From the IMG/VR virus record IMGVR_UViG_3300029197_000003: a stretch of DNA of 64,000 bases. One strand, written 5' to 3'. Source of the stretch: a virus. The translations under genes were made by a program, and so were the position numbers. Under the pieces are notes generated by a model, which was not told the DNA's origin, did not search any database, and worked only from the letters and a program-made list of their open reading frames with translations. How positions within the stretch are numbered: position 1 is the first letter of the stretch; the number at the start of each line of letters is the position of its first letter. Below are positions 6,520 to 31,600 of the stretch, piece by piece.

Positions 6520-6873
6520 TTATTCTGCTTCGCTATTTCCTAATCTACTTGAACCATACAACCATCGTCTTACTGGTCTGAGAACCATTATAGCGGGATG
6601 GGTATCACAGCTTACATCACTTTCAAATACAAAGATTATTTCGCCAAACATGCCGTTTTCTCGCTTTAAACGAATATCTCTGCACCGCTTAATCGATGCG
6701 TTGATTTCATTAAGCCGTTTATTAAGGTCGGCAATTAGAACCTCTGGCGTATATTCTTCGTCGAACTCTATAAGACAATTCTTGTAGCTTTTAAGGTACT
6801 CGGCAAGTACCTCTTCTTTCATGTTTCTTCTATTACAAGAGACTGAAACAACAAAATAGTATTCCTTCTTCAT
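6520..6873 (-). CDS. hypothetical protein
   Basis: ORF track, 117 aa, in operon context. No motif recognised. Confidence 0.5.
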   Translation of the reverse strand: MKKEYYFVVSVSCNRRNMKEEVLAEYLKSYKNCLIEFDEEYTPEVLIADLNKRLNEINASIKRCRDIRLKRENGMFGEIIFVFESDVSCDTHPAIMVLRPVRRWLYGSSRLGNSEAE

Positions 6874-6890
6874 AATATGTTTTTATTGGT

Positions 6891-6997
6891 TGGTGCAGGT
6901 GAGAGGAATCGAACCTCTTATCTCACATATTCTATTTAATCAAATCATAACAACTATGGAACTTCCAAAAGTATGAGACCCAGTCTCAATCACCTGC
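6891..6997 (-). tRNA. tRNA-like element 1 (107 nt, encoded CCA, anticodon arm not identifiable)
   Basis: The minus strand reads GCAGGTG-AT-TGAG-ACTGGGT-CTCA...AGAGG-TTCGATT-CCTCT-CACCTGC-A-CCA. It has a perfect 7-bp acceptor stem, a D arm and a canonical T arm. However, 55 nt lie between the D and T arms. Confidence 0.45.
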
Positions 6998-7001
6998 GTG
7001 T

Positions 7002-7101
7002 AGCTCGCTGCGGAAATCTTCTCACCCATAACTTTTCACAGATTCACAGTTTCATTTGCGATGCAACGCTTTGCACCTCGTGAAAAGAACCGCAGCGAGC
7101 T
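7002..7101 (-). ncRNA. nested-stem structured RNA candidate directly 5-prime of tRNA-like element 1
   Basis: A perfect 12-bp pairing (7002-7013 with 7090-7101) encloses an 8-bp pairing (7032-7039 with 7080-7087). That in turn encloses the hairpin TGCAA-CGCT-TTGCA at 7062-7075. Confidence 0.3.
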
Positions 7102-7105
7102 TATA

Positions 7106-7453
7106 TCAATAAAGGAAATCGTACATCAGCGATTGTTCATGCTCCTCGTACAATTTTGCCTCCTTTTCAAGTTTTTCATACGCCTCTCGTTTGAGAGTTG
7201 CGTATAGCCCTGAATATTCGTTTAGGATAAGGATTTTCAATTTCACGTCCTCCACATCTTCTTCTACGTTGTAGACGGAACAATCGCTGCATTGCCAATC
7301 TTCATCAACGATTAATTCGACTTCGTAATTCTTCTTGCCAATCTCCATGTAGAAGTTGGCAGTGAGATAACCGCGTGTGCGGCAGATACACTGCTCTTCT
7401 GCATCCTGCATCAGCAATTCTCTTATCTCAGCAATTCTCTTAATCTTATTCAT
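7106..7453 (-). CDS. hypothetical acidic protein
   Basis: ORF track, 115 aa, flanked by tRNA-like elements. No motif recognised. Confidence 0.55.
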   Translation of the reverse strand: MNKIKRIAEIRELLMQDAEEQCICRTRGYLTANFYMEIGKKNYEVELIVDEDWQCSDCSVYNVEEDVEDVKLKILILNEYSGLYATLKREAYEKLEKEAKLYEEHEQSLMYDFLY

Positions 7454-7472
7454 ACAACAAGGTTTTAATTAG

Positions 7473-7554
7473 CTCAGATAGGTGGACTTGAACCACCTGT
7501 GCCGCCAAGTCCAAACGCAAACGAAAGGTGCCAGCTATCGGCATATCTGTCTGA
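7473..7554 (-). tRNA. tRNA-like element 2 (T arm plus imperfect acceptor, no canonical anticodon arm, no CCA)
   Basis: The minus strand has GGTGG-TTCAAGT-CCACC-TATCTGA-G. The 5-prime partner is ACAGATA (6 of 7 bp), or CTCAG..ATA with a 4-nt bulge. GCC-GATAGCT-GGC forms a D-like hairpin. Confidence 0.3.
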
Positions 7555-7772
7555 GGAGGATATAAAGAATTTATGTAGTAGTTACATGATAGTTACATAA
7601 CTTCTCGTGGCAGCTCACGCGGTATGGATGATGCCGAACCTCATCCGTTTACAACTTCACGACATAGATAGTTACTATCACGTGATGCCACTTTTTCGGG
7701 GATTTGGGCCTTGCTACTTCAATTTCACTTCCGTACCCCTTTGCCAATAAGTCAAAGAACACTTTTCGCTTG

Positions 7773-7856
7773 TGAGCCACGGCGGAATCGAACCGCCACA
7801 CACCATCAACAACTCAATTCTCACAACACAATGAATGGTGTGCAACCATTAGGCTC
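7773..7856 (-). tRNA. tRNA-like element 3 (T arm plus partial acceptor, no canonical anticodon arm)
   Basis: The minus strand has GGCGG-TTCGATT-CCGCC-GTGGCTC-A. The 5-prime GAGCCTA pairs at 5 of 7 positions. ATGGT-TGCAC-ACCAT forms a hairpin in the D position. Confidence 0.3.
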
Positions 7857-8003
7857 TGTCTCGTTTTTCTCGGCAAGCAAGTCGACGACGATTAGTCAGA
7901 TTATCGCGAGACGTGAAAAAATAAAACACAGAACGCTTTCCAATTACTTGGATATTTGTATATTTGCGGTAACAAGTTGTGCAACTCGTTCCGTAACACG
8001 TTG

Positions 8004-8035
8004 CAAAGATAGATATAATATCTATTGTAACCAAA
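8004..8035 (-). promoter_or_regulatory. Bacteroidota-type promoter driving the leftward early transcript
   Basis: On the minus strand, TATCTTTG (8011-8004) matches the TAnnTTTG -7 box. TTTG (8035-8032) lies 20 nt upstream and fits the -33 box. The promoter is divergent from the HTH gene at 8076. Confidence 0.45.
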
Positions 8036-8075: not shown

Positions 8076-8504
8076 ATGAATCTAAACGAAAGAATCCTTA
8101 CATTTATCAGCCACTTAGAAATGAATGTTGCTGAATTTGAGCGTAATTGCAATCTTAGCAACGGCTCTGTATCTAAAATGGGAGACAATACCAGACGTTC
8201 AACGTTAGAGAAAATATCTAAGATTTACCCATCTCTCAATCTCAATTGGCTCCTTACAGGAGAAGGCTCTATGATTTTAGGAGAGGAGAACGCGGTGCAG
8301 CAAAAGCAGGAATCGACAGAGAGTAAGGGCGATTTCGTAAGAGTGAAGATTCATGACGACCATGTTCACTACACATATATCAATCGTAATCACGTGTATG
8401 CCGTAAGAGAAGAGGCAGACCGTATCACCGTTTACATGACAAATGGTGATAACTATACCATCTTCGAGGACTTTAAGCGCGTATTGTCAGATTTACTCAG
8501 ATGA
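8076..8504 (+). CDS. HTH transcriptional regulator (phage repressor/Cro-like, Bacteroidales type)
   Basis: The N-terminus is LNERILTFISHLEMNVAEFERNCNLSNGSVSKM...LNLNWLLTGEGSM. This is the HTH plus NWLLTGEG signature it shares with the 9165 repressor. Confidence 0.6.
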   Translation: MNLNERILTFISHLEMNVAEFERNCNLSNGSVSKMGDNTRRSTLEKISKIYPSLNLNWLLTGEGSMILGEENAVQQKQESTESKGDFVRVKIHDDHVHYTYINRNHVYAVREEADRITVYMTNGDNYTIFEDFKRVLSDLLR

Positions 8505-9164: not shown

Positions 9165-9935
9165 ATGCAGACATTACGAGAACAAAGAAAAGAACGCCTA
9201 CAAGTATTCGGGTATTCCATGAATGCTTTCGCGAATAGTGTAGGTATAGAACCAAGTAATCTCAGTAAAATGCTTGATGGGAAGCAAAAGATTACACGGA
9301 GAACAATGGAAAAAATAAAGGCTCGTTTCCCTGAATTAAATTTTGATTGGATTCTATGGGAAACAGGTAACATGCTCAACGAGGATGCGCCGCGACTAAT
9401 GTCACAGCAAAACAATCCTCACTCACCAGAAGCGAGGATGGAGAATAATTACTATATGCATGGAGGGGCGGAAGGCGGCAACATCGCCGCACAGAACTTG
9501 GAGGTAAAAAGCGCATCCGAAGACGCACGTCCAATCATTCCATCATATATGTATAATATGCCAGACTATGATATATATGCAAACATAAAGAATGGTGCTG
9601 CAAACATGGAGATATTCTCTGTAGAAGGATTCATGAAGCAGATAGATATTATTTACAGAGTGCAGGATAATTCCATGACGCCAACCTTCACCAGTGGAGA
9701 CCTCATAGGCATCAGAAGACTGCCAGAGACAGAACACATCGTTAACGGAGATTATTATGTCATTGACACAAAACCGCATGGCGTACGTCTCAGAATCCTC
9801 ATTGAGAATGCTGATTCATACACCCTGCGGACGACAGATGCCAACCGTGACAGATATACCGACTTCAAAGTGGCCAAAAGCGAAATCATCAGTATCTTTG
9901 CCGTTATATTTCTTTTTAGACATAGCTTTGTGTAA
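9165..9935 (+). CDS. CI/LexA-like repressor (N-terminal HTH plus C-terminal S24 peptidase domain)
   Basis: The HTH is GYSMNAFANSVGIEPSNLSKMLDG. The S24 serine motif is QDNSMTPTFTSGDLIG, and a candidate catalytic Lys lies downstream in FKVAKSEI. Confidence 0.8.
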   Translation: MQTLREQRKERLQVFGYSMNAFANSVGIEPSNLSKMLDGKQKITRRTMEKIKARFPELNFDWILWETGNMLNEDAPRLMSQQNNPHSPEARMENNYYMHGGAEGGNIAAQNLEVKSASEDARPIIPSYMYNMPDYDIYANIKNGAANMEIFSVEGFMKQIDIIYRVQDNSMTPTFTSGDLIGIRRLPETEHIVNGDYYVIDTKPHGVRLRILIENADSYTLRTTDANRDRYTDFKVAKSEIISIFAVIFLFRHSFV

Positions 9936-10844: not shown

Positions 10845-12065
10845 ATGAAATACAGCATACTATTCTCCCCAGATACACGTGGAGACCTCAGATTAACTAT
10901 ACGGTATCAGATGAAGCGCTTTACCTTCTCCCTTGGATATAAGGTAGACTCAGCCAAATGGGATAGGGATACGCAACGATGCAAACGAAATACCACGCAT
11001 GGCGAAGAAAAGGTGCCTGCGTCAAGAATAAATACGGAGATACAGCGATACGAAAGCGAAATAATCCGCTTGGCAGATGCGTACAAAGAGGCACCGACAT
11101 ACGACCAGTTCAAGGAAGACATTTCTTCCTTGTTTAGAATAAAAGAGGACGGGATTTCAAAAAATAAAAACCTGTTTGACCTCTATAATAAATACGTAGA
11201 AGAGGCTGGGAAAGAAAGTGGATGGTCATCATCAGTAAGGTATAAGCATAATCAGATATGGCATAACTTGTACGACTTCTTGCCATCGGCAAAAATAGAA
11301 GACATAAACGCTGGCATGCTCTCTAAATTTCGCGATTACCTTATTACGCAAGGCTATCAGAATGAGACAGTAAAAAAGAAAATATCCATGCTTAAATGGT
11401 TCTTCCGATGGCTCGTCACAAAGGGCATCATTAAGGATGTGAGCTTTACTACTTATCGGGCAAAATTAAAGCGCTCAAATAACACGGTTGTATTTTTAAC
11501 TTGGGAAGAGCTTATGAAAGTCTATAATTACCCGTTTAATGAGGGTTACTTATCACGAGCGAGAGATGTATTCTGCTTTTGCTGCTTCACTTCCTTGCGC
11601 TATTCCGATGTCGCCAAACTGAAGAAATCCGACATACAAAATGGAATAATCAATGTCATAACTCAGAAGACAAATGCCGCTTTAAAAATCGAATTGAACA
11701 AATACTCCAGTTCAATCCTTGATAAATACACGAAAATGGAAGGAGACAAAGCATTGCCAGTCGCATCCAACCAGAAGATGAACAACTATATAAAAGAAGT
11801 ATGCCGCCAGTGTGAGTTAAACGAAGTCATCACATGCACCCATTATATAGGCAACAAAAAAATAACAGAAAGCAAGCCAAAGTGGAAGGCGGTTGGTACA
11901 CATTGCGGACGTCGTACATTCATTTGTAATGCCCTCATGCTTGGAATACCGCCATCTATCGTCATGAAGTGGACAGGGCATTCCGATTATAGAGCCATGA
12001 AGCCATATATAGATATAGCCGACGAAGCTAAGAAAAATGCCATGAATTTGTTTGATAAAATATAG
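10845..12065 (+). CDS. int: tyrosine site-specific integrase (Bacteroidales phage-integrase type)
   Basis: 406 aa. The catalytic-domain pattern is SLRYSD...HCGRRTFICNAL...WTGHSDYRAMKPYIDI (R...HxxR...H...Y). The N-terminus is an arm-binding-type region, MKRFTFSLGYKVDSAKWD. Confidence 0.9.
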   Translation: MKYSILFSPDTRGDLRLTIRYQMKRFTFSLGYKVDSAKWDRDTQRCKRNTTHGEEKVPASRINTEIQRYESEIIRLADAYKEAPTYDQFKEDISSLFRIKEDGISKNKNLFDLYNKYVEEAGKESGWSSSVRYKHNQIWHNLYDFLPSAKIEDINAGMLSKFRDYLITQGYQNETVKKKISMLKWFFRWLVTKGIIKDVSFTTYRAKLKRSNNTVVFLTWEELMKVYNYPFNEGYLSRARDVFCFCCFTSLRYSDVAKLKKSDIQNGIINVITQKTNAALKIELNKYSSSILDKYTKMEGDKALPVASNQKMNNYIKEVCRQCELNEVITCTHYIGNKKITESKPKWKAVGTHCGRRTFICNALMLGIPPSIVMKWTGHSDYRAMKPYIDIADEAKKNAMNLFDKI

Positions 12066-13676: not shown

Positions 13677-16600
13677 TCACTCTTCAACCTTACTTAAGGT
13701 TTCCTTAATCTGAGGTGTGTACTCGCTTTGAATCCTGCCAATTTTCTCATCGGCCTCTTCCTGCGTCTTGGAATCCTCAACGGCGCGAGCACATTCTGTC
13801 ATTATTTTCTGCACTAACATCTGTGCATGGTCAAGTGCTGCGCGTTTATCCTTGTCATCGCCAATATAACTTCTTGCGTTGTCAAATTGGCTCTTGACTG
13901 AATTATAGCTTTTCCATAGCATATAACTCATGAAATCCTTGCTCTTAGCAAATTCGTCAAGCTCTTTCACGTATTGACTGTTACCTCTCGCGGATTCTTT
14001 CTGGTAATTATCAATCTTGTAAATCAACTTTTGCCCCTTGTCGTATTCTCGTTGGAATCGCTCTCGTGCTGCACGATTATGCGTGCGGTCGTCTACGGAT
14101 TTAACCAAGGTACGGTAGAATGGTATCTCGTTAGACCTTATCTGCTCTCCTTGGATAATCTTAGCGATAACGCCAGAGGTTCTGCTGACAAATTTACCTG
14201 CGCCCCCTGTGTATGATTCAACGAGATGCTGAACCATTGCAGGGTTGACCTGCACACCTGCACGTTCGTAGTCGCCGCCGCCCTGCACCTCGTTCAACCA
14301 TTTAGACATGGCAATATAATTAGGATTGGTGCTTTGGTAAACATTTCTGAATGCAGGTGTATTCTTGTTGAACGGTTCTTTATAGATTGGCATTCCGAGC
14401 CAATTCTTATTGAAGGCAATTTCTACTTCTGGTCGCACCGCTGTTGGAACGAGAGAAAGCATGCTGCCGTTGCCTTCGGTCAAGTCAAGAGGCAGTATCT
14501 GTGACAATTGCTCAAATGCTTGAAATGTAATCTCGCTCGCTGGTAGATTTTCGCTGCCGCAAACAACCGTCCCCAACAGTTCACCAATGCCGTATGCTGC
14601 GCGATGCTCAATTGACATCGGAAGAGTTAAAAATCTTCCGTCCTTACCCAACGGCAGCATAATGCCCATTCTTCTCATAGATTCAGGCATATCCCAGTAG
14701 TCATCTGGGTCTCCGCCTATGGCAGACAACATCAATGGAATGCACATGGCAGAAAGCATGCCGAGCGTTACTGCTGCGCCGTCCCACATAAGCATTCCTG
14801 CTGTATGGTTAAGATGTAATCTAACATTCTTGTCAAGACCTTGGATGCTGGCATTTGAAAATGCGTAGAAATTCTTGAATACCGATGCTGCATAAGCGCT
14901 GAGAAAATGAAGATTGTTCATGCTGAAAAAGTTGGAAACATCCCATTTCCCTGCTGATTTACTTCCAGCGCCCTTGCGGTTGAAGTTTATAGTTACTTCC
15001 TTTGCATCCATGATAGACTGTTCCATAGAACGCCCCATCTGTCTGCTGGTAAGGAATACAGCAAAGCGCACCCAGTCTTCCGTGCAGCGGCTCAGATATT
15101 CCGCCCCCTTCATGTAAATATTCCAAGCGTCATTAATAACATAATGATGGCCGTAAACAACCTTATTACTAAGGCGTTCAATCTTACTTTTTCCTTCCTT
15201 GGCGCGAAGTTCAGAAAGAGCTTTAGTGATTTCGCCCTTATAACGCTCAACGCCCTTCATAAAAGTATAGCCTGTCTCGCCGCCATTGTAGATAAAATCG
15301 TAAAACGCCTTTTCTAAAGGATTGGACATATCAAGAGTATTGCCATTAAGTCGGTTGACAAGTCGGCCGATATTCTTGACGCACGTAAGATAGTTCTTAA
15401 CGTATCTGCCGTAATATTCCGTCCCCTCCTTTGGTATCAGTGTCGTTGAAAATTCCAAATCTCGCATGGCGTTAGAGATAGCGAACTCAACGTTTCTTGC
15501 CGTAGCCATTCTTGCAATCCAATTGGTCATAGCCTTCAAAGCAATAGCTCCAGGGTTTTCCGTGGCATCTGGGTTTAGTAAGCCATTGATAGCTTGCGCC
15601 GCCCTCGGGTTCCCGTTGATGGTCAGTATGTAGGTCTTGCCTCCACGTTTCACCATAACTTGATGCTCATTCATGTTTCTGCCGAGCACTCGGTATGGAA
15701 TATGCGGTTTCTGATGAGCCAAGGCGTAGGTGTCAGGTTCATCCTTAACCTTTTCCTCCATGTCATCTTGGAAATCAAGCATCACTTGGTTTGCTTCCTC
15801 CGTTGTCATGCCGCTTGTATCTGGCACAGCCACTGGCACCCATGCTCCGCGCGTGCCGTCTCCGTTGTCGTAGTCTTCATCAAATTTCACGTAGAGGTCA
15901 CTGACGCTGATAAGGTCGGATGGGTGGTTTAAGGCGAGGTTCAGCAATTGCTGTTTCATGAGATTGCGGTTAGACTGCATGATGGCCATTTCTGCCATAT
16001 TGCCGATAACTGCAAACGGGTCATCTGCAACACTCTTACGTCCCTTGGCTTTCTTCATGAAGCTACCCGTGCCTCCATTGATTGTTTGGTCGCCAAAATA
16101 TTCGTACACCTCATCACTCGTTGCTTCGTCAAAACCTCTGAGTGGAATGTAGTACTGATACATACTGCTTACATTGTCGTATGTCTCCTTACTTATCAGT
16201 CCTGCCTCATACGCTCTTTGAAGGGAAGACTTTGTAGCAGCACGAATGCTGTCCCACATGCTATCCGTCAGACTGCCAGCCTCGGCCTCCACTTCCTCTA
16301 CATATTTTTGCGCTTCATCCATAGCCTCAGAAACGCTCTGCGTTCCGAATAACTCTGTCAATCCTGCAAAGCTCTTCTCTTCATATTCATCAATGAAGTA
16401 GTCAAGCGTCTTCTGCCCAAATGGGTGCATGGATTTATATCTGTCATAAGCCTCTTCTGCGGCCTTTCCTGCCATATATTTTTGACGCTCCATGCCGTGT
16501 TTGGCCATCACATACGTCTTTATTTCTTCGTATGAACGGCCTGTCTCGCTGCCAAGCGCATGAATGGCCTCTATCATATCTGCATAAAGCGTCCTCTTGT

Positions 16601-19600
16601 AAATATCCATCTGCGCATAATTGCGACTGCTCATAGTGATATAAGCGTTATATGGATTTTCAAAGTCTCCAAGCTTAAAGCCGCCGTTTTTCTCTATGGC
16701 GTGTTGTAAGTCCTGAAGAGGAGAAAGCATGTCAACCCACGCGGTACGTTCAAGGTGCGAACCTCTCGTCACAAGTCTTTCATAAGTATCCTTGGCAAGG
16801 ATTTCCTGCAAATTATCCAGTTCTCCGCGGAGCAAAACGGAGTGCTCCTTCTTCTCCGTGTCGGTCATCGCGTTCTTCCCAGCCTTCAATTTATAACGCA
16901 TGGCAATACGCTCCGCTTCGGCTACATAGCGTCCCTTTTCGCCTGTCTTCAAATTCTGATAGCTACACCAAAGTATATAAGCAAGTTCCCTATCGCTCAA
17001 CTCACGGTTTTTCAGGCCCAAGAACTCCAGCGCACGGTTAAACAGTCTTCGGAGGGTAGCAAACAAGCCGCGTTCTTCTGCCGTCATACGTTCAAAGTCC
17101 GTGCGCTCTGCAAGCCCTGCAAGATATTCTTCTGTGGCGGTACGGAAATTCCATCCTTTTCCGCGACGCAATTCGTTGATAGCGTCTTTCACTTCCTGCG
17201 AAGCTGCCGCAAGAACGCTGTCAAGAAAAGCATCCATCACGTTATGGCCAAATAACTCTCTCAGTCCGTGATGGGCTACGGCTTCATGCAGGATGGTCTG
17301 CGTCACGTCTGCTGCGTCAGTGTTGTTCGACAATACCACGTGGATTTGCCCCGTTCTGGTATCATACCAGCCTTTGGCCGTGGCCTCTCTTCCTTCAAGG
17401 CCTTCGGCGCTTTCATGCACGACAACTCTGCCGCCAAGGTTGAGGTTCTCGGTGGCTTTCTGCGCGGCTTGGGCTGCCTCAACCTTTATCTTGGTGATGG
17501 TTTCTTCAAGCCCAATGTCATCGTTGCGGAACATAATGCCGCCATCTGCAACATTTTTGGAAGAACTTTCGTTAATATCAAATAATGTCGGTATCTTTGC
17601 ATCCGAAGAAAGGAATTCACCAGAGTACGTTACGGACGTAGGGAGTAGGGAGTCTTTTATCTCCATAACTCGCTGGCTGATACCTTTCTTTTTTGATTTA
17701 AAGAAACTCTTTGCAGTAAGGTTTCCCTTTTTTGTACTGCACACCTCAGTCAGGTTATACAATCCGTTACCAGCATCTTTCAAGAAGAAGAACAATTTGC
17801 GTCCGTCTTTCTTGTCCACGCCATAGAGTATGCCGTCTGGCTGGTTCAACACGTCCACCATATTCTGAATATCTTCATCTGTAAGTGGCACATTGTTACC
17901 TTTGTCCTTTTCATTCTCGCCATAATGGTCTGAACGGATATGGTTCAAGTCAGATGGATTGAGAACAAAGTCCACAAACTCTTTAAACTTCAAATCCGAC
18001 AATTTCTCCAAGTATGCCTTCCCGTCTGCACTCAACCGACCGATGCTTGCTGGTTTCCCGACAAACTCTCCTGTCTTTGCTTTTTGAAACAACTCGGTTA
18101 CTCGTTTTTTCATATCTGCTATAGTTGTAGCGACTTGGTGGTTTTCTTCGACCTTACCATCACTGAACTTAGTATCACCGAATCCTGTCTTCCTGCGCAT
18201 AACCACAGTATCAGCGGCATCGAATACGGTAGGCTTACCACCATTCTTCTTACGCTTGTAGGCTTCATGTAGAATAAACGCCCAGTCCTTATCACTCCAC
18301 TTTCTCTTGCCTGGGATTTTTAATCCGTCCAGCAATTTTTGTAGAGCCTTTTGAAGTATGGTGGTTAGCTTGCCCCAGAACGTAAGTTCCTCGGCGCTCA
18401 TCGTCTCAAAGCCGCTTTCACCGATGCGTCCAGCAAGGTCGGCAGCATACTCCTCTGTGGCATCACGCCTGAACTGCTCACTCTTCTTACTTGCCTCAGA
18501 ACGAGCCTTTTCAATGTCAGTATGATATAAAGTGTTAGTATCCTCGCCCTTCGCCTCATGCTCCTTGCGCTTTCTCTCGCGCAATCGGTCCACCTCAGCA
18601 TCGTACATCTTCTGTGCCATGCGGTCAATCGTGCCGCGTATCTCGTCCTTAGACACACGATAAAGTTCATCAAGAGCATTGTTCAGCTTCGCTTCATCGG
18701 GGAACAACACACGTAAACCATCATGTCCCACAACCTCATGCACAAACGTATTTTCAATATCTGCCATGTTAGCGTTGTTTGATACTACAATAGTCACCTC
18801 GCCAGTTATAGGATTGAAGCTGCCTTTCATTCTGCGCTGACGTACACTTGGAAGTGCTGCCACTTCTGCCTCTGTGCGGATTATGCGCACAGGAGTATGC
18901 AGACGTTCAGACAACTCGGTCACTCTCTCGCTCATGGCGCTTTCCATTACTTCCTTGGGTTCTCCGACCCACTTGCCAGCCGTCTTCGCATTGATGCGTG
19001 CAATATCCTCGTTGCTGATGAATGGCAGTTGGCCCTCACGTCCAGGGATAACATCACGACCCTCCCAATTCTGCTTGTCGAGTGCAAGACTTTCTACTGG
19101 TGTCAGTTCCTTACCATCCAACTCGAAGCGATAACCCATCTTTTCCAACTCCCTGCGAACCTGCGGTACAAAGCGGTTGTAGTCTCGGTGGCTCTTCAGA
19201 GCCTCACGCTTGCCAGGATGCTTCTTCCAATACTCGTCAATCATCTTCGCCTCTTCTTCGCGTGTGAGCACCTTGTCTATTTTGCTCCAACGTGAAAGAT
19301 ACAGCGTGCGGCCGTTGTTCCACTGATGTGCGCCAGTAGGCAACAGGGCATAATCAGCATGGAATGGCTCGTCTATCTCCGATTTTGGAATGAGGCTGCG
19401 AACCACAACAAGGTTCGGTCTCTTATTTGCCTCGCCAAACTGCGTGTTCAAAGGTGTTTCAATGGCATGGTCATAGGGGTCGTATGCAGCCCACAAACCC
19501 TTGTCTTTGGGGTTCTTCTTCAGGAAGTACTGCAACTGTGCCTCCTTGGTCTTCGGCTTTACGAATTTCAAGCCATCGTTAATCTGCAACTCTGTGCTCT

Positions 19601-22600
19601 TCTTGCCGTCAACCATGATGTAGCCATTTTTGTTGAGTTCGTCTAACTTTCGCTGCTGCTCATCGGTCAGTTTTATCTGCGGTGGATTGCTGTAGTTCCA
19701 CTTTCCACCCTCCAATGTCCTGCGCTCCCCTGTCTCAGCATCGCTGAATGCCATAGGCGAACCGAGTGTATCATCCTCAAAGGCCTGCACATTGCGATAC
19801 ACTGGCACAAGTTCACTGTCTGGCAGTGCCTCCAGCTCCATTGCCTTCGGGTCGTCAGCATCCAACAAACGGAACTTGGTCTTGTCTTCTTCCGATTGAC
19901 CAAGTTTGTTATACTCGGCATCGAGTTCTTTCTGCTTGGCAATGGCTTCATCAAGTTCTTTCTGCTTGGAGAAGGGCGCATCGCCCTTAGGCATGGTCTT
20001 CAACATCTCGCTGTTGGTATCATACTCACGATGGTACACCTCGTTGTTATGAATTATCTGCTCCAACAGACTGCGGAATACAAGACCTGCCTGTGTCGGG
20101 TCTTGCGGCATTCGCTTTGTGTAACGGATGCTCCATGCGTTGTTGCCTCCAATCTGCACCTCGTAGTGTGAAGACAGCAAGTCATCGTCTGTGACAAACA
20201 CGATATCGGCACGCTGACCGAAACCTGCAAGCACCACTTTTTTATTGTTCTTCAGTTGTTCGAGTATATACTGACCAGCTTCCTTTGGTTTGTCAAAGTT
20301 CTGTCCATAATAGGAATCTTCCACGGTTACCTTGACCTTTGAGGGATATGTGCCTTTATCATCTGGTTTGAAACCCTCTCTTTGTAAGTCATGAACATCA
20401 CTATCGCTTAACGAGATAAGGCGTTTCAAGTTCTCCACTTTCTTTGTCACTGTCTCGTAGTTCTGTCTCTTGCGCTGTTGGTCACGCAAGAAACCATTAT
20501 AAAGAGACTTCAACTTCTTCACCAACTTATCTTGCTTTGATTTCTCAAAGATAATTGGATTGCCCGAAAGCAAAGCAACCATCTGTGCAGGGTCGATATT
20601 GCCGTTTTCGTCAGCATCACCCTCGTCAAAGCTACGCTCACCAGATATGGTTCCCATCTTAAACTGCGTGAACATCTTGCCCTTCGCGTCAAGTAATTGA
20701 TACTTGTATAAGTCAAGGCTTCCCTCAGTGGCATAGTAGTGTACACGTACCTTATTATTGAGGAAATCATGAGCCACAACATTGCCCTGTCTGCTACCAC
20801 GACCAATACACTGCTCCAAGTCGGCAGGTTGCCATGGCACGGTCAGCATGTGCAGGTCAGTGATGCGTGTCTGTACATTCACACCAGTACCCATGTTTCG
20901 TGTACCTCCAATAAGAATGCGTACTTTGCCGTCACGCACCTTTTGGAACAATGCTTCCTTTTCCGTATCGTTCTTCACCTGCTGAATGTAGGCTATCTCA
21001 TCACGTGGTATGCCATAGTCTTTTGTCAGTCGGTTTATAATGTCATGATATGCATCGTATTTATTGCCCTTTGTTGGAACACCAAGTTCACAGAACACAA
21101 GTTGCACGCCTTTTTGCTCCTTCATTTCGTCATACGACTTCTTGATATTGTCACAGCAATAGGAAATCTTACCAACACTATCGTCCATATCTGGGAACAC
21201 AAGGCGCGGACTGACTGCCGCTTTTGCAGATATACCCGATGCGACAAGTCCCCATGGGAATTTCTTCGGGTTTATCGGGTGAATACCAAAATAGCTACCG
21301 TCCTTGGTCCGAAGCATCTTCACAACCTCGCGGTTTATCTCTGCTACTGCATCTGACTGTGGAACAATCACCGTCTTGCCGTCCACCTTTGGCTTGGGTA
21401 GTTGCAGGTTATAGTCGTTGCGCACATCGGCTATTTCCGCATAGAGTTGCGACAATTCTGGAACATTGTCGAAATAGCGGAAACGGTCTTTCATCTTGAA
21501 CTCGTTGGAAACACCAGCCTCTAACTCTGACGAATGTACGGCAAAGGTGCTTGCCCATGCGTCAAAGGTCGGCATACCCAACTGCTCCAGTTTGCGCGGG
21601 CGCAAATAGTTGAGCAAGTTGTATATCTCAACAAGAGAGTTTGTGATGGTCGTTCCCGAAAGGAATACTGTACCCTTGTCACCTTGGTGCATCTTCTGCA
21701 AGTGACGGATGCCTGTCAGCAAAGCAACGGCTTTGTTTGAACCTGATGCTTCGCCCAATCCTGCCACATTCTGGTAACTTGTGACATAGGGCAATGATTT
21801 GAACTGATGACACTCGTCCACAAACAGATAGTCTATACCCATGTTCTCAAAGCAGAACTCGCGGTCGGTGCTACGGTCAAGTCGTTTCTCCAACTTGGCG
21901 TGCAGGTTCTGTCTGCGCTTTTCAAGCGATTTTATCTGTCGCTTGGTGAGCTGGCTCTTGTCTCCTGTGCCATAAAGGTATTCAATCATGGCATCAAGCT
22001 GTGCAAGCTGCTCATTCACTACATCGCCTTCTGCCTCCTCAGAGTGAGGTATCTTGCAATATTGCTCATGGCTAACGATGATACAGTCATAATCGTTAAG
22101 CGAGATATTAGCGAAGAACTTCTTGCGGTTCTCTGTACTGAAGTCCTTTTCTGATGGTGCAAGAACACGCGCGGTAGGATAGGCCTCCTTGAACTCGCGG
22201 GCTATCTGTGGCACTGTTGACTTCAATGCCACAATCATAGGTTTCTTGGCTATGCCCATTCTGCGCATTTCCATAATGGCAGACTGCATTACAAGTGTTT
22301 TACCTGCACCTACGATATGGTCAACGATACCGCCTCGATTATTGATGAGCATCCATACGGCATCTTTTTGATGCGGACGGAGTTCCTTGCCCATCAATCC
22401 AGGCACGTTGAGGTGTGAGCCATCCCACTTGCGGAGCACTATGCGGTTGAAGCGGTCATTGTATGCTCGTTCCATTATCTGTATTCTTGCATCGTTACCA
22501 GGCAACCATTGCTCAAAATGCTCTCTGAGGTCGGCCACCTTGCTGTTGGCAAGCTCGGTTGCCTCCTGGTCTATCCATGTGTTGCCGTCTTTGTCCTTAC

Positions 22601-25600
22601 GCACAATGCGGAAGTCCTTGTCTTCAAGTGCTACTTGGAATATCTCCTTGATGCTCTTGTCGGCTGTCTTCCAATCATCTGCCTGTCCTCCAAGTTCCTT
22701 TTCTTCAATATTGATTTCAAAGGAGTCGGTTTCGGGAACGTACACCACACCACTCTTGATGATTTCTCTACGCTCACCGTCAACCCACTCATAGTTGCGT
22801 GAAGACGATGCGTGCAATCCAAGGGTCTCTTTCACAAAGTCGTTGAGCACTTCTTGTGGTATCCATCGTGCACCAAGGTGTATTGTGATGTCGTCGAATG
22901 GTATAGTGGCTGGCTGCACCTGTTCCAACTCCTTGACATTGCGTTCAAAGGTCGGGTCTGTTGCAGCTGCGGTCTTTGCCTCCTCCAATTTGGCTACTAC
23001 ATCGCCACTGAGGTATTCATCGCGTGTTACATAACGGTCTGTGGCATTAGGCTCCTTGAAAACAAGGTCGCCACACTGCTCAAACCAGTCTGCGCCCAAC
23101 GTCTTTTCGATATACTCGCCACGGATTTCACCATATTCTGCTAACGAGGTGGTTATGGCTTCCTGCGGTGTCTTAGCATCTTCAAGTTTGAGGGCTGGCT
23201 TGATTGTGTTCTTGGTGAAGATGTCGGACAATCCTTGGAACTTGCCGCCTTTCCATACTTCAAGTGCTTGCAGTGTATAGCCGTCAATGTCACTGAGGAT
23301 AACAGCGTTGTCGGTGTCCTGCAATTTGCCGTACTTGCTGACGAACTCACCGTAGGCTCGTTTGAGCTTGGCACGTAGCATGTTGAGCTTCGTGTCCGAA
23401 AGTCCATCAATCTGCCCTGCAATGAGTTCTTTCATGGCTGTACGCACCTCGCCCATGGCAATAATGCGCATCTTCTGCTTAGCCAGCTGTGGCTGCTCCT
23501 CAAACACTCTTGTCACCTCGCCATACTCATTCTTGGTGGCGGTCAGCACACCGACCTTGCCGTCTTGAATAACAAGGTTGCCTGTACTTACCCAGTTGCC
23601 ATCACCTTTATACTCCTCACGAACGGCTTGTTTAACCTCACGTGATGTGCGTGTGGTGTCAAAGAGCATTCCCTTGCGGTCGCCAACAATGCGCTTCACT
23701 GCTTTCTCCACCTCCTTGGCTATCTGGTCGGTGGTCAGTTCGCTATGCAAGCCGAAACTCTTGTCGTTATATTGGTTCCCTGCCACTACATCGCCTATCA
23801 TGTTCTTGCGGTTGCTCGCATAGTAGGCATTGTGCGACACCTTTTGCTTCTCACCATTGCGTTTGTTGGGTGCAGTGGTCTCGGCAGAAGACAGAAATGC
23901 TTGTTCGCGTGCAACATAGTCGGGGTTCTCGCGCGTCTTTTGTGCATCCTCTTCATCTTTCCACTTGCGGATATAGATGATGTCGGCCATTGCGCCTGTG
24001 CCTTGGAATGTGTTGTCGGGCAGTCTGACTGCTCCGAGGAACTCGCCCTGCTCGGCAATGTATCTACGGATATGCTGGTTACTCTGCGTATCCATCACAG
24101 CAGGACTTGTCATCATGGCAACAATTCCGCCAGGACGTGTAAGTTCGAGCATCTTCACAGCATAGTAGTTGTGAATTCTCTTCTGTGCCGACCGCTTAAT
24201 AGGGCTATTGTCGTTCTTCCATGTCGGGTCGTTTACTTCGATGTCACCAAATGGCACGTTACTTGTCACCACATCTTGCGAGTTCGGTGTAAGTCCTGAC
24301 TTTTCAAAGCCACAAATGCGCACATCAGCATCTGGATAAAGGGCGCGTGAAATCTGTCCCGAAAGCCAGTCAAGTTCAACGCCAGTTATCATTGTGCGCC
24401 CTTGAATGTCCTTCGGAAGTGTTCCCTCAAAGATACCGTTGCCCATTGAGGGGTCAAGGAAAGTGCCACCTTTGAAACCTGCAAGCGAGAGGAAAGAGTT
24501 CATCGCACTTGCAATCTTGGTCGGAGTATAGTATGACGATAGGGCAGCTCGCTTGATACCTGCAAACACGCCTTTCTTGCCATCTGGGTCAAGCGTGTCT
24601 ATTGCATCTGCGAGTCTATGGTATGGCGAATTGCCGTAGGTGTTCCTGCGCATCTGGTCAACCGAATAGAACTTGCTCAGCTGGTCTATCTGTCCCCAAC
24701 CACGGAAACGAGAAAGTATCTGTTTTTCCTCATCGGTGGCCTTACGTCCCTCTTTGAAGAGTTTGGCTATTACCTCAATGGCTGACACATTGCCCTCCAA
24801 ACGCTGTGCAGGAGTGTAGTTGTCGGCTTCATTGCCGTCTGTGCCATAGTGGAAGTTATTTGTAAACTTGCGCACAGGTGTACGCTGCTTCTTTACGGCA
24901 GAAGGTCTACTTCCCTCGCCAGTGGAGCTGGCAGGTTCTCCCGAAGAAAGTTCTTTTCCTCCTCCGTCAGTCTCTCCTGTCTGAACAGTGCGCGGTCCAG
25001 CAACTCGTCCACGCTCATCCGTGGCTCCGTTGGAAACTGTTCTATTAGCTGCGCTCTCATCACGTCCCCGATTTCCGACTGGTGGTTGTATTCCCCCGAC
25101 CTCATCAGTTCCATGTACTGCTCCGTCAGCTGCTTCTCGTCCGTTCTCACGGCTTGCATCAGTTGACCGCTCTCCGTCAGTTCCTGTAACTGCTGTGGTG
25201 CGTTTTCCTCCATCAGTTCCAGTTTCATCAATGCCCACGGTGTTCGGGCGTTCTCCTCCAGCCACTGTTTGGCTTGGGCTACTGCTATTGCTGTCTGCTG
25301 TTCCATTATTATTCGGTTTATCGAGCGGCCCAGCAAACAAATCGCCTACTGGCTGCTCTGGTTTAACTTTCTTAGTTGTCTTTTGGGCTGCTGATTTAGG
25401 TTTGCCTACTGGCTTTTCTGATGCAGTATGCTGAACACCGCCATTTTCAGAACGCCTCGTCACATCATCATTAATATGTATGCCTTCTGGCAATGCCGCA
25501 ACTGCATCCTCGTTAATACCATCCTCGTAGAAGTAGCCACCCTCATCATTTTTAGATACTATATGTCTCTTTGCAAAAGCCTTATCAGCTATCTTTTCAC

Positions 25601-28600
25601 TAAAACCCTTGTCATTAAGCAACTTCTTGTAAGTTTCCACATAACCATCCTTACGCAAAGACAGACGCACATCCGTCATGATTCTCTCACCCAAAAGTGT
25701 ACGAGCAGCTTGCGCATCAGGATTATTATCCACAAGTTCCTTGAATAACGGATGTTCCGTTATACGCTTGATAAGTTCAGTGTCGCTGATTGTGTTTGAT
25801 TCTGGCTTATGGCGCAACTGGTCGGGATGAGCATTAACCCACAAGACAGGAGCAAGACCTGTATCTATGAGGTAACCTCCCTCATCATTAGGATGCGCCA
25901 CAACAGCATCAGTCCATGTGCGGCCACCATCGGTTGAATACTGCACCTTGTCACCTGCTGCAAACTTACCATCTGAAACCTCAGTACGCTCAGGTAGATA
26001 CTTGTAGACTTCACGCTTCACCTTATCCAACAGTTCTGAATACGTCACGTCTTTGTTAACCCATACATTTATGCCATAGCGTCTGTCATAGCGGCCATTG
26101 CCATTAGGATTATCCACGCGAAACATGATACGAGTCACTTTGAGGTTGTCACCTTCAAATTTGGCAACACCTCTACCTGCTGATGGTACGAGTTGAATAT
26201 TCACATACAGCTCACGCCCCTCTTCCAATGGCAAGTGCATACTAACATCACCTCCTAAAGGAGCAATGTTTGCCACAGCAAGCGGTTTCGTCTTGCGTTT
26301 ACCTTTCTTGTCGGCCTCTCCGTGTGTAGCCTCGAAGCGGTCAAGTCCAAGGTCGTCAATCAACTGACTTGCAAGGTTTGCCGCATCCTTCACGGCCTTC
26401 TTCTCTGCATTACGCATGTAGCCGTATGCCTCGTTGTAGTCCTTCTCCACCTGCTCAGCCTCATAGTAGCCAAGCAGGGCAAGCTGCTCATTTACCTTGT
26501 CGAGGGTTTCGTCTACTCTTTCGGATGCTCCTCCAAGTTCTTGTCTATCGCTTGAAGTTTCTGCGAGATTTTCAACTTCGCTTGCAACAGACGTTGCTTT
26601 GCTTCCAATAGCATCTGTATTTGCTGCTGTCTGTTTTTCGGTTTCTTTTCGTTGCTCATTTCTTGTTGCTTTTAATTCATTGTTTGCTTTTTCTGCTGCC
26701 ACTTGTGCCTTGCCTTCCTCAACTATCATATTGGCTTGGGCAAACACATCTTTATGAGGCTTATCGAAGTTCTCCACATCAAAGGCATCAACTTCCTCTG
26801 TAGGAGTAAACATCGCTTGGTCATAACCAGGAATGCGTTTTGCACCCTCATAAAACGATTTCAGCCACGGCTTGATTTTATAGCCGAGACGGCTGACCAT
26901 TGCCTTTGCAAATTCGGGGAATTTCACAAAGCCTTGGTCAATATACCCCAATGAGTAGTTCACACCTGCATTGTACACAAAACGTCTCTGTTGAGAGGTC
27001 ATCGCATCGGGGTCACGGAACTTTATACCTCCGTCCAACTCTTCATCGCCAATACCAAGCAATTCACGAAGAATGTCCTCATCATGTTTCATTTCATCAG
27101 TAATGACAAGTTTCTTCTCACCATTCAGCTTTGGTTGCTCAGCTTTAGTCGGCTCTGATGGCTTCTGCTCTGCCACATCTGCGACCTCTACACGGTTTGC
27201 AGGCTTCTTGGCTGCGGTCTTCTTGCTTGCCGTTGGCTTCTTCGGCTCCACTGCATCGCGAAGCTCCTGCGCTGTCATTGGCTGATTATCTGCAACGGCT
27301 TCCTCATTACCAACCATTTCTGCGGCCTTGCGTGCGTCCTCTTCACTACGGAACATCCAACCACCGCTCTCACGGTCTTTCCAACCGCGTGCTGGGGCAA
27401 AGCGTCCCTCGCCTATACGCTCCTTAGCAAACTCCTTGACAGCACGCTCTTGGTCGGCTGTCAAGTTATGGTCAAACGTGAGCAGTGAAACATCACTCGT
27501 CTTACCTTTCTTGTTGGTATAGGTAGATGGAGTGATGGTGTACCCCTTGCTCTCGCTTGTTTTGGTCTGCTTTGTTTCAGCCTTTGTAGGTGTCGCTTCT
27601 TCCTTAGCAGGAGCATTGCCTATTGTCTCTTTCTTCACCCCAGCATACTCCGCAAAAGGTTTGGTCTTTCTCTTGCTCGACTCTATCCACTTTTCAAAGT
27701 CTTCGAGGTTCACTGCCGTCACGTCAATTCTGCGCCCATTCTCCCAACCCTTTTCATAGTTGGAAAGATAGGCGTTCCGTGCCTCTTCCATACTGTTGAA
27801 GCCAAGCATCACCTTGTGTTCGTCAAACGTGCCGTCTGGGTTGTACTGGTCAACCACAAACACATATTTGCCGTCCCACTTATCCATATCTTCTGCAAGG
27901 AACACGTCTATATGGTCGCCGTCCACGCCCTCCGTGCCACGGATATAGCCGTAGGTATTGTTCATCTTCACGCTCCACTTCTTGCCATTGGCATCCGTAC
28001 CGCTACGCTCGCTTCCCTTTGGGTTTTCGATGGTAACGTCAAACGCGCCAACCTTCACGTGGCCCATTTTGTAGTTACCTGCCTTCTTCTGGGCTTCGGT
28101 GGGAGAGGTCTCTACTTCGGCCGACGCGGATTTTACAGCGGATTGGGTGGAATTTTTCGGTCTGTTTTCTTGGGTGGATGGGGAGGATTCTGTAACTTTG
28201 TCGGTAGATAACTCCCTTTCAGCAGGATATTGGTCGGAATTGGGCCGACCCAGAAGTGCCTCTTGTTCGGGAGTTATTTCTTTGCTCTTATATATGATTT
28301 CCTCATTTTCAGAAAGATTTGCATTACTCCTACGACCAAACAGAGTAGTTATAGCGTTTACTTCTATGTCTCGTCCAGCGTTTTTCACATCAGCGCCGAC
28401 AACAACATAATCCCCTTTTTCTGTTTTAAGTGCAGTATATATACGGAATCCCTTCTCTTTATTTTTAAGCTGCGTTATAGCAAACGGATGCTCAATTGCA
28501 TGAGGAATTTGCTCCCATTCAGACTTTGTAAAATCATGCGAACCATCCTTTCCGAAATGACGCGCAATCACACCATACCTGATAGTGAATTTTGAGCCAG

Positions 28601-31600
28601 TCATTCCAAGATGCTTCATAAAATCGGGGGCCTTCGCGAAGTCAAAAAAATTTCTATTGAAAATCTTTGAAGCATAATCCTTTCCTTTTTTGTAGATTGT
28701 ATTAAGGACATTTTCTATTGTGGAGTTTAATTCGGATTCTGCTTCTTCGCTGGCACGCTTCGCTTCTTCTTCAGCCTTTCGTTTCGCCTCCGCTTCAGCT
28801 TTCTCTTTAGCTATCCGTTCCTCCACCACCTTTGCTCTCTGCTGGGCAGGAACTTCTGCTATAGCCTTCCACTTGTCAAGTTCTTCCTGCGCTTTGGCAA
28901 TAGCCTGTGTGCGTACTTTAGCGGCCTTTACCTTTTCTGCAACAGAAACGCCAGAAGGCAATTTTATCTTTTTGGCTTTCTCCAATGCCTTCTCCTTGTC
29001 TTCCACCATAGACTTAGCAATCTCTTCTGCTTCTATCACGTTTCCCGCTTCCTCAGTCAGACCAGTAAAAGCAGTTTCGGCATCTGTCTGCTCATAGATA
29101 GGATTTCCGTTTTCGTCCTTTGGAATGCGCTCCAAGGCCGTAGGCTTATGCTCCTGCTCTGCTTGGGCAATAGCAGGTTTTCCTGCGTCTTCCTGCCCTG
29201 CCTGCGTAGGTGTAGCATCCACCTGTGGCGCGACTTCCGTGTCGCCCACCGCCTCTGTTTCATTCCAAAGCACATTGCCGTTTGCATCAGCAATCTCAGA
29301 AACACCGCTATCGAAGTCCGCAAGAGGGATGCGGTCTACCATTTTCCCATTATATGGCGCGTCAAACTCAATCTCCACGCCGTCTGCTGACAGATTGGTG
29401 ACACGTCCACTGACGGCATTTCCGCTGCCGTCTTTCATCTTGACATGGTAATCGTATTTGACTTCTGGCTTCGTTGGCTTCTCAGTAGCATCCGTAGCTG
29501 ACTGAGGTGTGACACCCTCTGCCGCTCCCTGTGCGTCTTCTTCCGATACGCCCTCTTGCTCCTTGTTGGCCAAGTTGTACTCCTCATTCATCGGCCCTTC
29601 TGCCGCATGGTATTCTTCGTCTGTCTCATCCAAATACGGCTCAATAGCCTCAAACTTACGTCCGCGGCCGCGTTGCTCTCGGAATACATCAATAGGGATA
29701 AGATAGTCATTGTTGTTTTGGTCAACGACTAAGACGCTTGCAGGATTCCCTTGTTCGTCATTGAAAACACATTTAATACCAACTTGCCGTCTATGTCCCT
29801 CTTCGTCCATCAGAATACCGCCTTGACCTGCCAGCGGAGTGTCCATGTTTAGATTGATAAGTCTCTGCTGTTCCTTATTTTCAGCATCAATCTTATCGTA
29901 CTTCCGTTGACGCTCGGTCATAGCATCGGATTCTTCAACAATACCTTCCACTTCGGATGCAGGAATCATTTCAATAACACCATTACCTTCACTGACAACA
30001 ACCGTTTCACCTGTAATGCTTCCGTTTTCGTATCTTCCACGAATAAGGAACACTGGCTTCTCCCTTCCTTTCACGTTCACCAGAATAACCTTTCCAGAGC
30101 CTCCTTCGCTGTCTGCTTCGTTCTCGAAGGTTATCTGTCTGATTACGCTGTCTGCGTGCTGTCTGCGTATGCTTTCGTCAGAGGTGATGCCATCCATCGC
30201 GCCCTTCTGCTGCTCACGGGCATTCAGGTAGGCCGACAGTGCAGCGTTTGCGGCCTTCTCGTCAAGCCCATTTTCCTTTGCAACTTCCACACCTTTTTTC
30301 AACTGCTCGGCAGGGGTCTCGCCAAGCGTATCGAGGTATGCGTCTATATCATCAGTAACGCCAAGTGCTGACATAGCCATTTCTCGCGTGTCAGCAAATG
30401 CCTGCTGAGCCTGCGCATATTCCTGCGGTGTCTGCATGTTGCGACCTTCTGCGTAAGCATGAATGGTCATGGCGTTCATTTCGTTCAACTCCTCGCCCGT
30501 GAGTGAGAAGGAATACTTTTCGCTAACAGCATTATTAAATACGGCTTGTGCCTTCTGTGCTCTCACGTAATTAAGGAACGCCTTCTTTTGTTCGTCTGAG
30601 AGAGATTTATTCTGGCATACGCCTGCATATATAGCGTTCACCAATGGCTCACCCTCCAGTCTGAGGATTGTGTTTTGAATCTTGTCCCAGTTCTCGTTGC
30701 CAAATAAACGTCTTGCGTTGGCTTCTGCTTTATCATAAGCGCTATTGACAGAGCGGAGCGTTCTGTAATATTTGACAGAACTTGCAGTGGAGGAGAAACC
30801 AAGCATAAAGATTGAGGAGGCCCAGACACTCAATGCCGTGTCAAGATTTTGTCTGCTATCAAAGATGTCTGCAAAGGTATAATTTTCATCGAAGGTAGCC
30901 GTCATCGGATTGGCGATATATTCTTCCAATACCTCATTTACAAATCCATCATAGCCACCTTTTTCAAATGTGCCATACACCTTTGACATAGCCTTGGCAA
31001 AAGCGCCGTTTTGTATCATGTGGATTGTTTTGTTATACGGCAAGGCTTCGCCAAAACTGCGGAGGCTAATCTTCCCGATGCCAAAAGCCTTGGCCACAGG
31101 CTCCAATACGTAAGTACCAACACGCTCTGAGACGTTTTGTACGAGCGTGTTTAATCCTGAGTGTAACAAGGAGTGCCCCCAGCTCTTTTCTTGCTGTGTG
31201 CCCGTTACGACAATACGTTGATTTTCATCAAACGTGTAATTCATCAAGCCCATCTTCTCAATTGCAGCATCAGAGATGATGCGCGGCATCTGAAATGAGC
31301 TATCAATCACACCAGCGGCATTGATAGCTGCCAGTCGCGTTGTTGCTCGGATGGTGGTATCAAAGAGCCAGTTCGTGCCGTATTTCGCGGCCATTCTGCT
31401 TCCACCCCTGATAATACCTCTTGCGGCAACATTTCCTGCGCCATAGGTCGCTATCGCACCAATGGTGAAGGGGAACGAATATCCAGCACCGAATGCTGGG
31501 CCATAAAGACGGCCTTCCCCGTGTCTATGAAATGCCGACATTGACTCTTGACTGAGCGAACGTGCAAGCCCTAAGCGGTCTTTGGCTTCCTGACCCATTT

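Follow-up and report, generated by a model that had tools for sequence, protein, structure and literature searches.

How is a sequence to be understood that starts and finishes like a transfer RNA (tRNA) gene but offers no recognizable anticodon arm in between? This question is raised by a 107-nucleotide (nt) element on the minus strand of the IMG/VR virus record IMGVR_UViG_3300029197_000003, at positions 6891-6997 of the 64,000-nt stretch analyzed here (“the window”). This tRNA-like element is documented below by its structure, its conservation and covariation, its lack of a conserved anticodon, and its genomic position. The explanation favored here, tentatively and with somewhat less than even confidence, is that it represents a tRNA-derived, non-decoding RNase P / 3'-processing module, which would split an early phage transcript, protect the 3' end of the upstream part, and release a stable RNA. 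It is favored because the tRNA arms are kept among the relatives, no anticodon is shared by them, and the spacing to a base-paired clamp lying immediately upstream is fixed.

Read on the minus strand from 6997 to 6891, the element is GCAGGUG-AU-UGAGACUGGGUCUCA-(55 nt)-AGAGG-UUCGAUU-CCUCU-CACCUGC-A-CCA, exactly as in an earlier note on this DNA, which had proposed a 107-nt gene with acceptor, D, and T arms and a 55-nt interval. Such an interval between the D and T arms usually spans 23 to 40 nt. The parts are as follows:

6891-6997, minus strand: the whole tRNA-like element, 107 nt in the window and 96-107 nt in relatives.
6991-6997, minus strand: 5' strand of the acceptor stem, GCAGGUG, pairing with 6895-6901; RNase P site predicted 5' of G6997.
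6974-6988, minus strand: D arm, UGAGACUGGGUCUCA, with 4 base pairs (bp) and a 7-nt loop or 6 bp and a 3-nt loop.
6962-6973, minus strand: linker joining the D arm to the central hairpin, length-variable (7-12 nt in relatives).
6922-6961, minus strand: central imperfect hairpin in the place of the anticodon arm, base UUC-CAUA paired with UAUG-U-GAG (RNAalifold consensus).
6938-6947, minus strand: 5-nt tandem duplication UGAUU UGAUU at the hairpin tip, confined to the 107-nt variants in the variant alignment.
6902-6918, minus strand: T arm, AGAGG-UUCGAUU-CCUCU, a 5-bp stem with G53-C61 and a UUCRANY-type loop.
6891-6901, minus strand: 3' strand of the acceptor stem, CACCUGC, with discriminator A and CCA, as read from the sequence.

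The D arm can be drawn as UGAG-ACUGGGU-CUCA or, alternatively, with six pairs (UGAGAC/GUCUCA); its loop bears the elbow GG, A14 is present, and A8 and U9 (6990-6989) precede the arm. The structural features required of an RNase P/RNase Z substrate are in place: the acceptor and T stems form a 12-bp coaxial stack, the T loop and D loop provide the elbow, and the 5' leader and 3' tail are single-stranded. Chance does not account for the tRNA-like ends, since a motif scan of both strands of the window (7-bp acceptor, 5-bp T stem with G53-C61, TTCRA-type loop, and D arm with GG) returned the element as its sole match, with none in 200 dinucleotide-preserving shuffles; when the D arm was not demanded, the shuffles averaged 0.04 matches. 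Hence, the tRNA-like element of 6891-6997 is real.

Relatives were gathered by DNA-pattern scans and by look-ups via both neighboring proteins (IMG/VR, ENA, Logan, and one mis-binned metagenome-assembled genome). The element was found in about 55 contigs from human-gut metagenomes, amounting to 76 fetched loci (some contigs were fetched twice) and 25 distinct sequences of 96, 97, 99, 100, 101, 102, or 107 nt. Across the alignment of these 25 variants, the acceptor, D, and T arms are 99.8% paired. In the acceptor stem, 99.4% of the alignment cells are paired, and at pair 6:67, U6-A67 swaps with U6.G67, the latter occurring in 12 of the 25 variants. The D arm is invariant save for its closing pair, which changes from U-A to U.G in two loci (L031 and L032), and no covariation is seen in its stem. 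In the sets fetched without reference to the 5' half (by the 3' pattern or by the proteins), the 5' strand of the acceptor and the D arm are still unchanged.

The most telling variation is that of the T stem, where both bases have changed in three of the five pairs (AGAGG/CCUCU, GAAGG/CCUUC, and AGGGG/CCCCU); AGGGG/CCUCU, an intermediate with G.U, is found among the variants as well. At least two compensatory events are represented. In L031 and L032, the most divergent relatives (their neighboring protein is 70-72% identical), the element is better conserved than both flanking open reading frames (ORFs) and the adjacent RNA: between the window and L031, identity is 92% in the 5' part of the element and 80% in its middle region vs. 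77% in the upstream ORF, 68% in the upstream RNA, and 64% in the downstream ORF. The element is also near-identical at loci whose downstream protein is just 57-68% identical.

The conserved arms enclose a middle region of 44 to 55 nt, in which indels are concentrated at two places, the linker that follows the D arm and the tip of the hairpin. A mini-hairpin UGGA-AGU-UCCA (RNA 31-41) and a stem AUUUG/AGAAU with four of five pairs (RNA 53-69) around AUUAAAU, both noticed by the earlier note, are indeed present in the window, where the 5' half of the former can come from the linker; the variants of 96 and 97 nt lack this half. The sole middle structure shared by all variants is the 7-bp base of the central hairpin, UUC-CAUR with UAUG-U-GAG, in which all seven pairs are 100% paired, with one-sided changes only (C-G to U.G and G.U to A-U). 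The 3' half of this hairpin, UGAUUAAAUAG.AUAUGUGAGAUA, is nearly invariant, and the tip varies.

In the consensus fold of the variants, no anticodon arm with a 5-bp stem and a 7-nt loop bearing U33 and purine 37 is present, and the candidates for it differ from variant to variant, which bears out the earlier view of a tRNA-shaped RNA without a recognizable anticodon arm. Run in intron mode across the variants, ARAGORN proposes Ser-gga, His-atg, Pro-tgg or ggg, Phe-gaa or aaa, and Val-aac, with five amino-acid identities and eight different anticodons in all; the position and length (10-29 nt) of the putative intron also shift. The idea of a tRNA that still decodes despite an insertion or intron is not supported by this comparison. 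The proposed UAA anticodon fares no better: it depends on the 5-nt duplication, found in the 107-nt variants only, which makes the 5' strand of the AUUUG/AGAAU stem, and elsewhere just three of the five positions pair. Another candidate stem, UGUUU/AAAUA just after the D arm (from ARAGORN -i), was rejected as being fully paired in the short variants only. A class-II drawing, with a weak stem UUGUU/AAUAG and a variable arm UAU-GUGAG-AUA, is conceivable, but its loop has 7, 8, or 12 nt depending on the variant. Overall, the element has no conserved decoder.

The detectors point the same way. ARAGORN found no tRNA and no transfer-messenger RNA (tmRNA) in the whole 64-kb window, and Rfam at its gathering thresholds gave no match to the element. 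At relaxed Rfam thresholds, the only tRNA-clan match was tRNA-Sec, at 25.3 (or 22.3) bits vs. a gathering score of 47, with the two ends aligned and 49 nt skipped. Therefore, covariance models see no hidden cloverleaf, and the ordinary phage tRNA that the earlier note had kept in view is not supported. From the canonical set of tRNA features, the element has the 7-bp acceptor with discriminator and 3' CCA and the 5-bp T stem with its loop; a conserved anticodon arm and scores above the detector thresholds are absent.

A genuine decoding tRNA with an odd anticodon arm, an oversized loop, or a short intron to be spliced out is thus largely refuted and seems extremely improbable. It could draw on the textbook ends and on particular variants, e.g., the 96-nt form, with a loop AUGAUAA (U33, A37) on a weak 4-bp stem, or the 107-nt form, with AUUAAAU. 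However, no stem, loop, or anticodon is common to all variants, the hand-drawn apical loop has 7, 8, or 12 nt by variant, all scores are below every detector threshold, and the ORFs of the phage read through in the standard code.

Known variations on the tRNA theme were also considered. The tRNA-Sec family (RF01852; 8/5 or 9/4, 13 bp) was set aside in view of the 7/5 layout, the absence of UCA from the middle region, and the sub-threshold score. Pairing of A8 with position 65 is not supported, because the outermost T-stem pair covaries (A-U to G-C) and A8 is fixed. The same 7/5 layout does not fit an allo-tRNA (8/4 or 9/3, 12 bp; PMC5389517). An intron-bearing tRNA is contradicted by intron positions, lengths, and anticodons that differ between variants, and no group I intron was matched in Rfam. 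Group I introns are several times longer than the 21-32 nt that are extra in the element, and no machinery for short protein-spliced tRNA introns is known in bacteria. A tmRNA was rejected as well: ARAGORN -m returned none, the pair 3:70 is A-U and not G3.U70, and the Rfam tmRNA matches (permuted and beta) cover the T arm only, at 10-20 bits vs. gathering scores of 47-84. A YrlA/Y RNA gave no Rfam match, and the ends of the element are acceptor ends; no TROVE/Ro60 match was found in the 52 window proteins scanned (the 6612-aa ORF and some small ORFs were outside the scan; aa, amino acids).

The earlier note missed both a conserved structured RNA directly upstream of the element and the position of the pair in an early operon. 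These neighbors, in the order of transcription, are as follows:

8004-8035, minus strand: match to a Bacteroides-type promoter, TTTG-N20-TAtcTTTG, leftward and divergent from a helix-turn-helix gene at 8076.
7106-7453, minus strand: upstream gene, which comes first in the early-left operon; its 115-aa product has four Cys (CxC...CxxC).
7002-7101, minus strand: upstream structured RNA, about 100 nt, a 12-bp clamp around a conserved hairpin and a variable region.
6520-6873, minus strand: downstream gene, 117 aa, hypervariable, with its ATG 17 nt past the CCA of the element.

The clamp is formed by AGCUCGCUGCGG (7101-7090) and CCGCAGCGAGCU (7013-7002). It opens 5 nt past the stop codon of the upstream gene, encloses the hairpin GGUGCAA-AGCG-UUGCAUC (7077-7060; consensus GGUGCAA-RGNG-UUGYAUC, 7 bp), and is separated by 4 nt (ACAC, 7001-6998) from the tRNA-like element that follows. 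The two RNAs fill a 232-nt spacer between same-strand genes, inside which there is no minus-strand ORF of 40 aa or more. A 215-nt stretch here folds at -73.9 kcal/mol (z = -4.8). In a joint alignment of the upstream RNA and the element (28 distinct sequences), 10 clamp pairs are 100% paired, with one compensatory change of U-A to C-G and frequent G-C/G.U alternation. The clamp G.U pairs fit a minus-strand transcript only. The gap between the clamp and the element, 4-5 nt, is constant in 28 of the 28 sequences. No match to the upstream RNA was found in Rfam, nor any other meaningful occurrence of its hairpin motif in IMG/VR.

From this arrangement, we infer the transcription of the element, its cleavage, and its stabilizing effect as follows. 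The element would be co-transcribed within the early-left operon of a temperate Bacteroidales phage. Host RNase P would cut 5' of G6997, and 3' enzymes would trim at ACCA (6891), so that both cuts split the polycistronic early mRNA. The upstream cistron would then end 4-5 nt past a 10-12-bp GC-rich clamp, blocking 3' exonucleases; the clamp end would act as a terminator-like stabilizer without halting transcription. The hypervariable downstream gene would keep a short A/U-rich leader, and a stable tRNA-shaped RNA of about 100 nt would be set free. In bacteria, the 7-bp acceptor stem is a main determinant of cleavage by RNase P (PMC4201824), and the anticodon arm is not needed; the enzyme reads the stacked acceptor and T stems together with the T loop and the 3' RCCA, and the CCA aids its binding. 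Bacterial tRNA-like modules that possess a 7-bp acceptor have proved to be substrates of RNase P and of CCA-adding enzymes (PMC4201824). Judging by the variants, selection seems to keep the features used by tRNA-maturation enzymes (the 7-bp acceptor on a 5-bp T stem, the UUCGAUU loop, the D-loop GG, the discriminator A, and usually the CCA), not those read by the ribosome. The anticodon arm appears to be replaced by a loose linker and an imperfect hairpin with a tip drifting in length. Of the options listed in the earlier note, a tRNA mimic or processing signal is what fits the comparative data best (arms kept, middle varying).

Several observations speak against such a processing module. Position 8 is A, vs. 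the near-universal U8 of tRNAs. One lineage (L008, L037, and L052) carries an acceptor mismatch, with C2 opposite U. The encoded CCA, described correctly for the window, is not universal in the family: it has become CUA in L031 and L032 (ACUA) and UCA in L019 (AUCA). The relatives are, moreover, nearly all so close that their invariance carries limited weight. The near-invariant UGAUUAAAUAG.AUAUGUGAGAUA is not explained by a processing signal alone and hints at an extra role. Finally, the element is seemingly dispensable in at least some settings, because a natural variant, L034, is devoid of it and of part of the clamp: its deletion takes away the clamp's last 4 nt and the tRNA-like sequence apart from the final 8 nt, and the resulting junction is GTAGC|CTGCACCA (contig 1440-1500; the same contig in two samples).

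Some of these observations would also suit a decaying relic of a captured tRNA gene, without function and conserved in appearance only through the recent kinship of its carriers. The indels, the tandem duplication, the loss of CCA, the acceptor mismatch, and the full deletion in one variant are as expected from decay, as is A8 in place of U8, and the family is limited to one phage lineage. We nevertheless regard a relic as unlikely: the three compensatory T-stem pairs require selection for pairing, in L031 and L032, divergent as they are, the element has changed less than either neighboring ORF or the RNA beside it, and it is near-identical beside a gene diverged to 57% identity.

As to the distribution of the family, neither the region nor its two neighboring genes had a counterpart among GenBank phages at the DNA or protein level, and there the element alone, used as a query, retrieved only generic T-arm matches to assorted tRNAs. 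In the related Bacteroides phage BKO1-TP3, the first 34 kb proved free of tRNA-like elements. With relaxed DNA patterns, this lineage was retrieved again, together with unrelated chance matches (L021-L030, L053, and L076-L082), and the protein-guided IMG/VR search returned the same contigs and a rearranged one, L075. Thus far, the family appears confined to one phage lineage. One of the chance matches, in the unrelated IMG/VR contig L030 (about 11050-11135), is a tRNA-like sequence whose acceptor shares the 3' end of the element, CGCCTGCACCA; it has an apparent oversized 11-nt anticodon loop, TCCGA-GCGTCGAGGAG-TTCGGA. In the rearranged contig L075 (1790-2200), the 115-aa gene breaks off near residue 99, where it is fused to a glycosyltransferase-like sequence.

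The extra role hinted at by the hairpin could be that of a trans-acting tRNA mimic, a natural “tRNA scaffold”, in which the central hairpin or the elbow binds or titrates a host factor, and the chassis gives processing and stability. Candidate targets are a tRNA-targeting defense nuclease, a tRNA-modification or CCA enzyme, an anticodon-blind aminoacyl-tRNA synthetase, or another RNA. In favor of this, conservation in the 3' half of the middle equals that of the arms; the element stands at the very start of the early operon beside a hypervariable gene, a layout typical of host-interaction and counter-defense loci; and some phage and bacterial tRNA-like modules are real enzyme substrates, as in the case of YrlA (PMC4201824). 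On the other hand, none of the scanned window proteins has a tRNA-related domain (PHROGs, Pfam, PADLOC, NCBIfam), antisense matches to the hairpin tip or the linker (searched as reverse complements) are not above chance in the window, the tip varies in length, and the L034 deletion exists. On balance, a mimic acting in trans seems rather unlikely, though likelier than a relic. A more specific version, which is speculative and in our view quite unlikely, is that the tRNA chassis displays the hairpin UGAUUAAAUAG.AUAUGUGAGAUA as an early trans-acting RNA neutralizing a tRNA-recognizing host factor, e.g., a tRNA-cleaving defense nuclease, together with the 117-aa protein. If true, it would constitute RNA-based counter-defense of a kind not yet described for Bacteroides phages.

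The locus has been rearranged more than once. In L088-L091, the element is followed by a tandem insertion, a second, 105-aa paralogue of the downstream gene (about 200-590 in L088); the paralogue is followed by a 13-nt remnant of the element's 3' end, CTCGCCTGCATCA, which precedes the 117-aa gene. The ATCA ending of this remnant recurs in the full-length element of L019. The breakpoints of the two independent rearrangements, L034 and L088-L091, fall within the last 13 nt of the element, and the upstream RNA, the middle region, and the downstream gene each have variants that are combined in a mosaic manner. Both observations would suit a sequence that matters mainly as DNA, serving as a conserved boundary or a recombination linker through which the hypervariable downstream cassette is swapped, the tRNA shape being a leftover. 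This explanation is nonetheless highly unlikely: the G.U-compatible variation and compensatory changes point to a constraint on RNA, homologous exchange can do without a tRNA shape, 4 kb separate the element from the integrase gene, and contigs run unbroken through the element.

Returning to the RNase P / 3'-processing module, its proposed mechanism most economically follows a logic already seen elsewhere. In the MALAT1/MEN-beta system, the mascRNA, a non-decoding tRNA-like fold, stands directly after a structured protector of the 3' end, and RNase P both makes the stable 3' end and frees the small RNA; RNase P sites also exist inside bacterial operon mRNAs. The MALAT1/MEN-beta system is eukaryotic and its protector is a triple helix, whereas the protector here is a 12-bp clamp and cleavage is predicted. 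By analogy with such systems, it is tRNA-like processing elements that the element seems to work most like.

Among phages, the closest counterparts are RNAC and RNAD of T4 (species 1 and 2), which have tRNA-like ends and are matured along with the T4 tRNAs. Like the element, they are phage-encoded, non-decoding small RNAs with tRNA-type transcription and processing, and their function is unexplained (PMC3014915). Still, they show no sequence relationship to it and lie inside a tRNA cluster, whereas the element is a solitary one, flanked by protein genes within an early operon of a temperate Bacteroides-type phage and accompanied by a clamp RNA upstream. YrlA and other bacterial and phage Y RNAs share with the element the mimicry of a T arm, a D arm, and an acceptor-like stem, as well as the occurrence in phages, and YrlA tRNA-like modules are substrates of RNase P and of CCA addition in M. 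smegmatis (PMC4201824). YrlA differs in its permuted topology, with an acceptor closed by a loop and RNA ends located in the Ro-binding stem, while the ends of the element are acceptor ends. The tRNA-like domain of tmRNA likewise combines an acceptor stem, a T arm, and CCA with the lack of an anticodon arm, but the element has no tag frame, no pseudoknots, and no G3.U70, and does have a proper D stem. Engineered “tRNA scaffold” RNAs carry cargo in the place of the anticodon arm and exploit cellular tRNA processing and stability; their architecture is that of the element, with the hairpin here as putative cargo, but they are artificial. The Bacillus cereus pseudo-tRNA “tRNA-Other” is a tRNA-like gene situated beside mobile DNA, with no part in translation but with a regulatory effect (PMC3399842); it differs in keeping a cloverleaf with an anticodon arm and in being chromosomal. 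In the literature searched, no description of the element itself was found.

Non-decoding tRNA look-alikes are known from few systems, and their roles in phages are mostly unsolved, those of T4 RNAC and RNAD having gone unexplained for decades. The present element is compact, conserved, and located at a defined place of the early operon in a phage lineage that is widespread in the human gut; deletion, duplication, and length variants of it exist in nature. It therefore offers a tractable test of whether phages use host tRNA-processing enzymes for cutting and stabilizing mRNA or for delivering small RNAs. It also illustrates that such RNAs are missed by the standard tRNA finders and by Rfam.

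The genome around the element is that of a temperate phage, with an integrase (10845-12065) and an S24 repressor-type protein (9165-9935), along with Erf, a RecE-like exonuclease, SSB, NinB, NinG, portal, terminase, and major head proteins; the last is 47-59% identical to those of three temperate Bacteroides phages. The promoter motif matched at 8004-8035, TTTG-N20-TAnnTTTG, has 6 matches in the window vs. 2.2 expected, and the position of this one suits the layout of the operon; on this weak evidence, it may mark the likely start of the transcript bearing the element. Between this putative early-left promoter and the first gene (7454-8003, minus strand) lie about 540 nt with short ORFs only.

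No family was assigned to the neighboring small proteins by PHROGs, Pfam, PADLOC, or NCBIfam. This includes the 115-aa upstream protein, which has only 8 homologue clusters and an AlphaFold model with a mean predicted local distance difference test score of 62, too poor for a fold search. The 117-aa gene, in contrast, has 137 homologue clusters at 90% identity. Where its product is 57-68% identical, identity amounts to 86-96% for the 115-aa and 78-aa proteins on either side, and the RNA has hardly changed, which suggests diversifying selection or cassette exchange.

Farther away, the region 13677-33515 (minus strand) is occupied by a single ORF of 6612 aa, the translation of which holds helicase-like (DECHQF) and N6-methyltransferase-like (NVPFGD) motifs; read from the translation alone, these presumably recall the giant virion-borne anti-restriction proteins. 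The window also includes a family-2 glycosyltransferase gene (42859-43758, minus strand) and a hexapeptide-transferase gene (43823-45163), both of which may serve in surface modification (serotype conversion).

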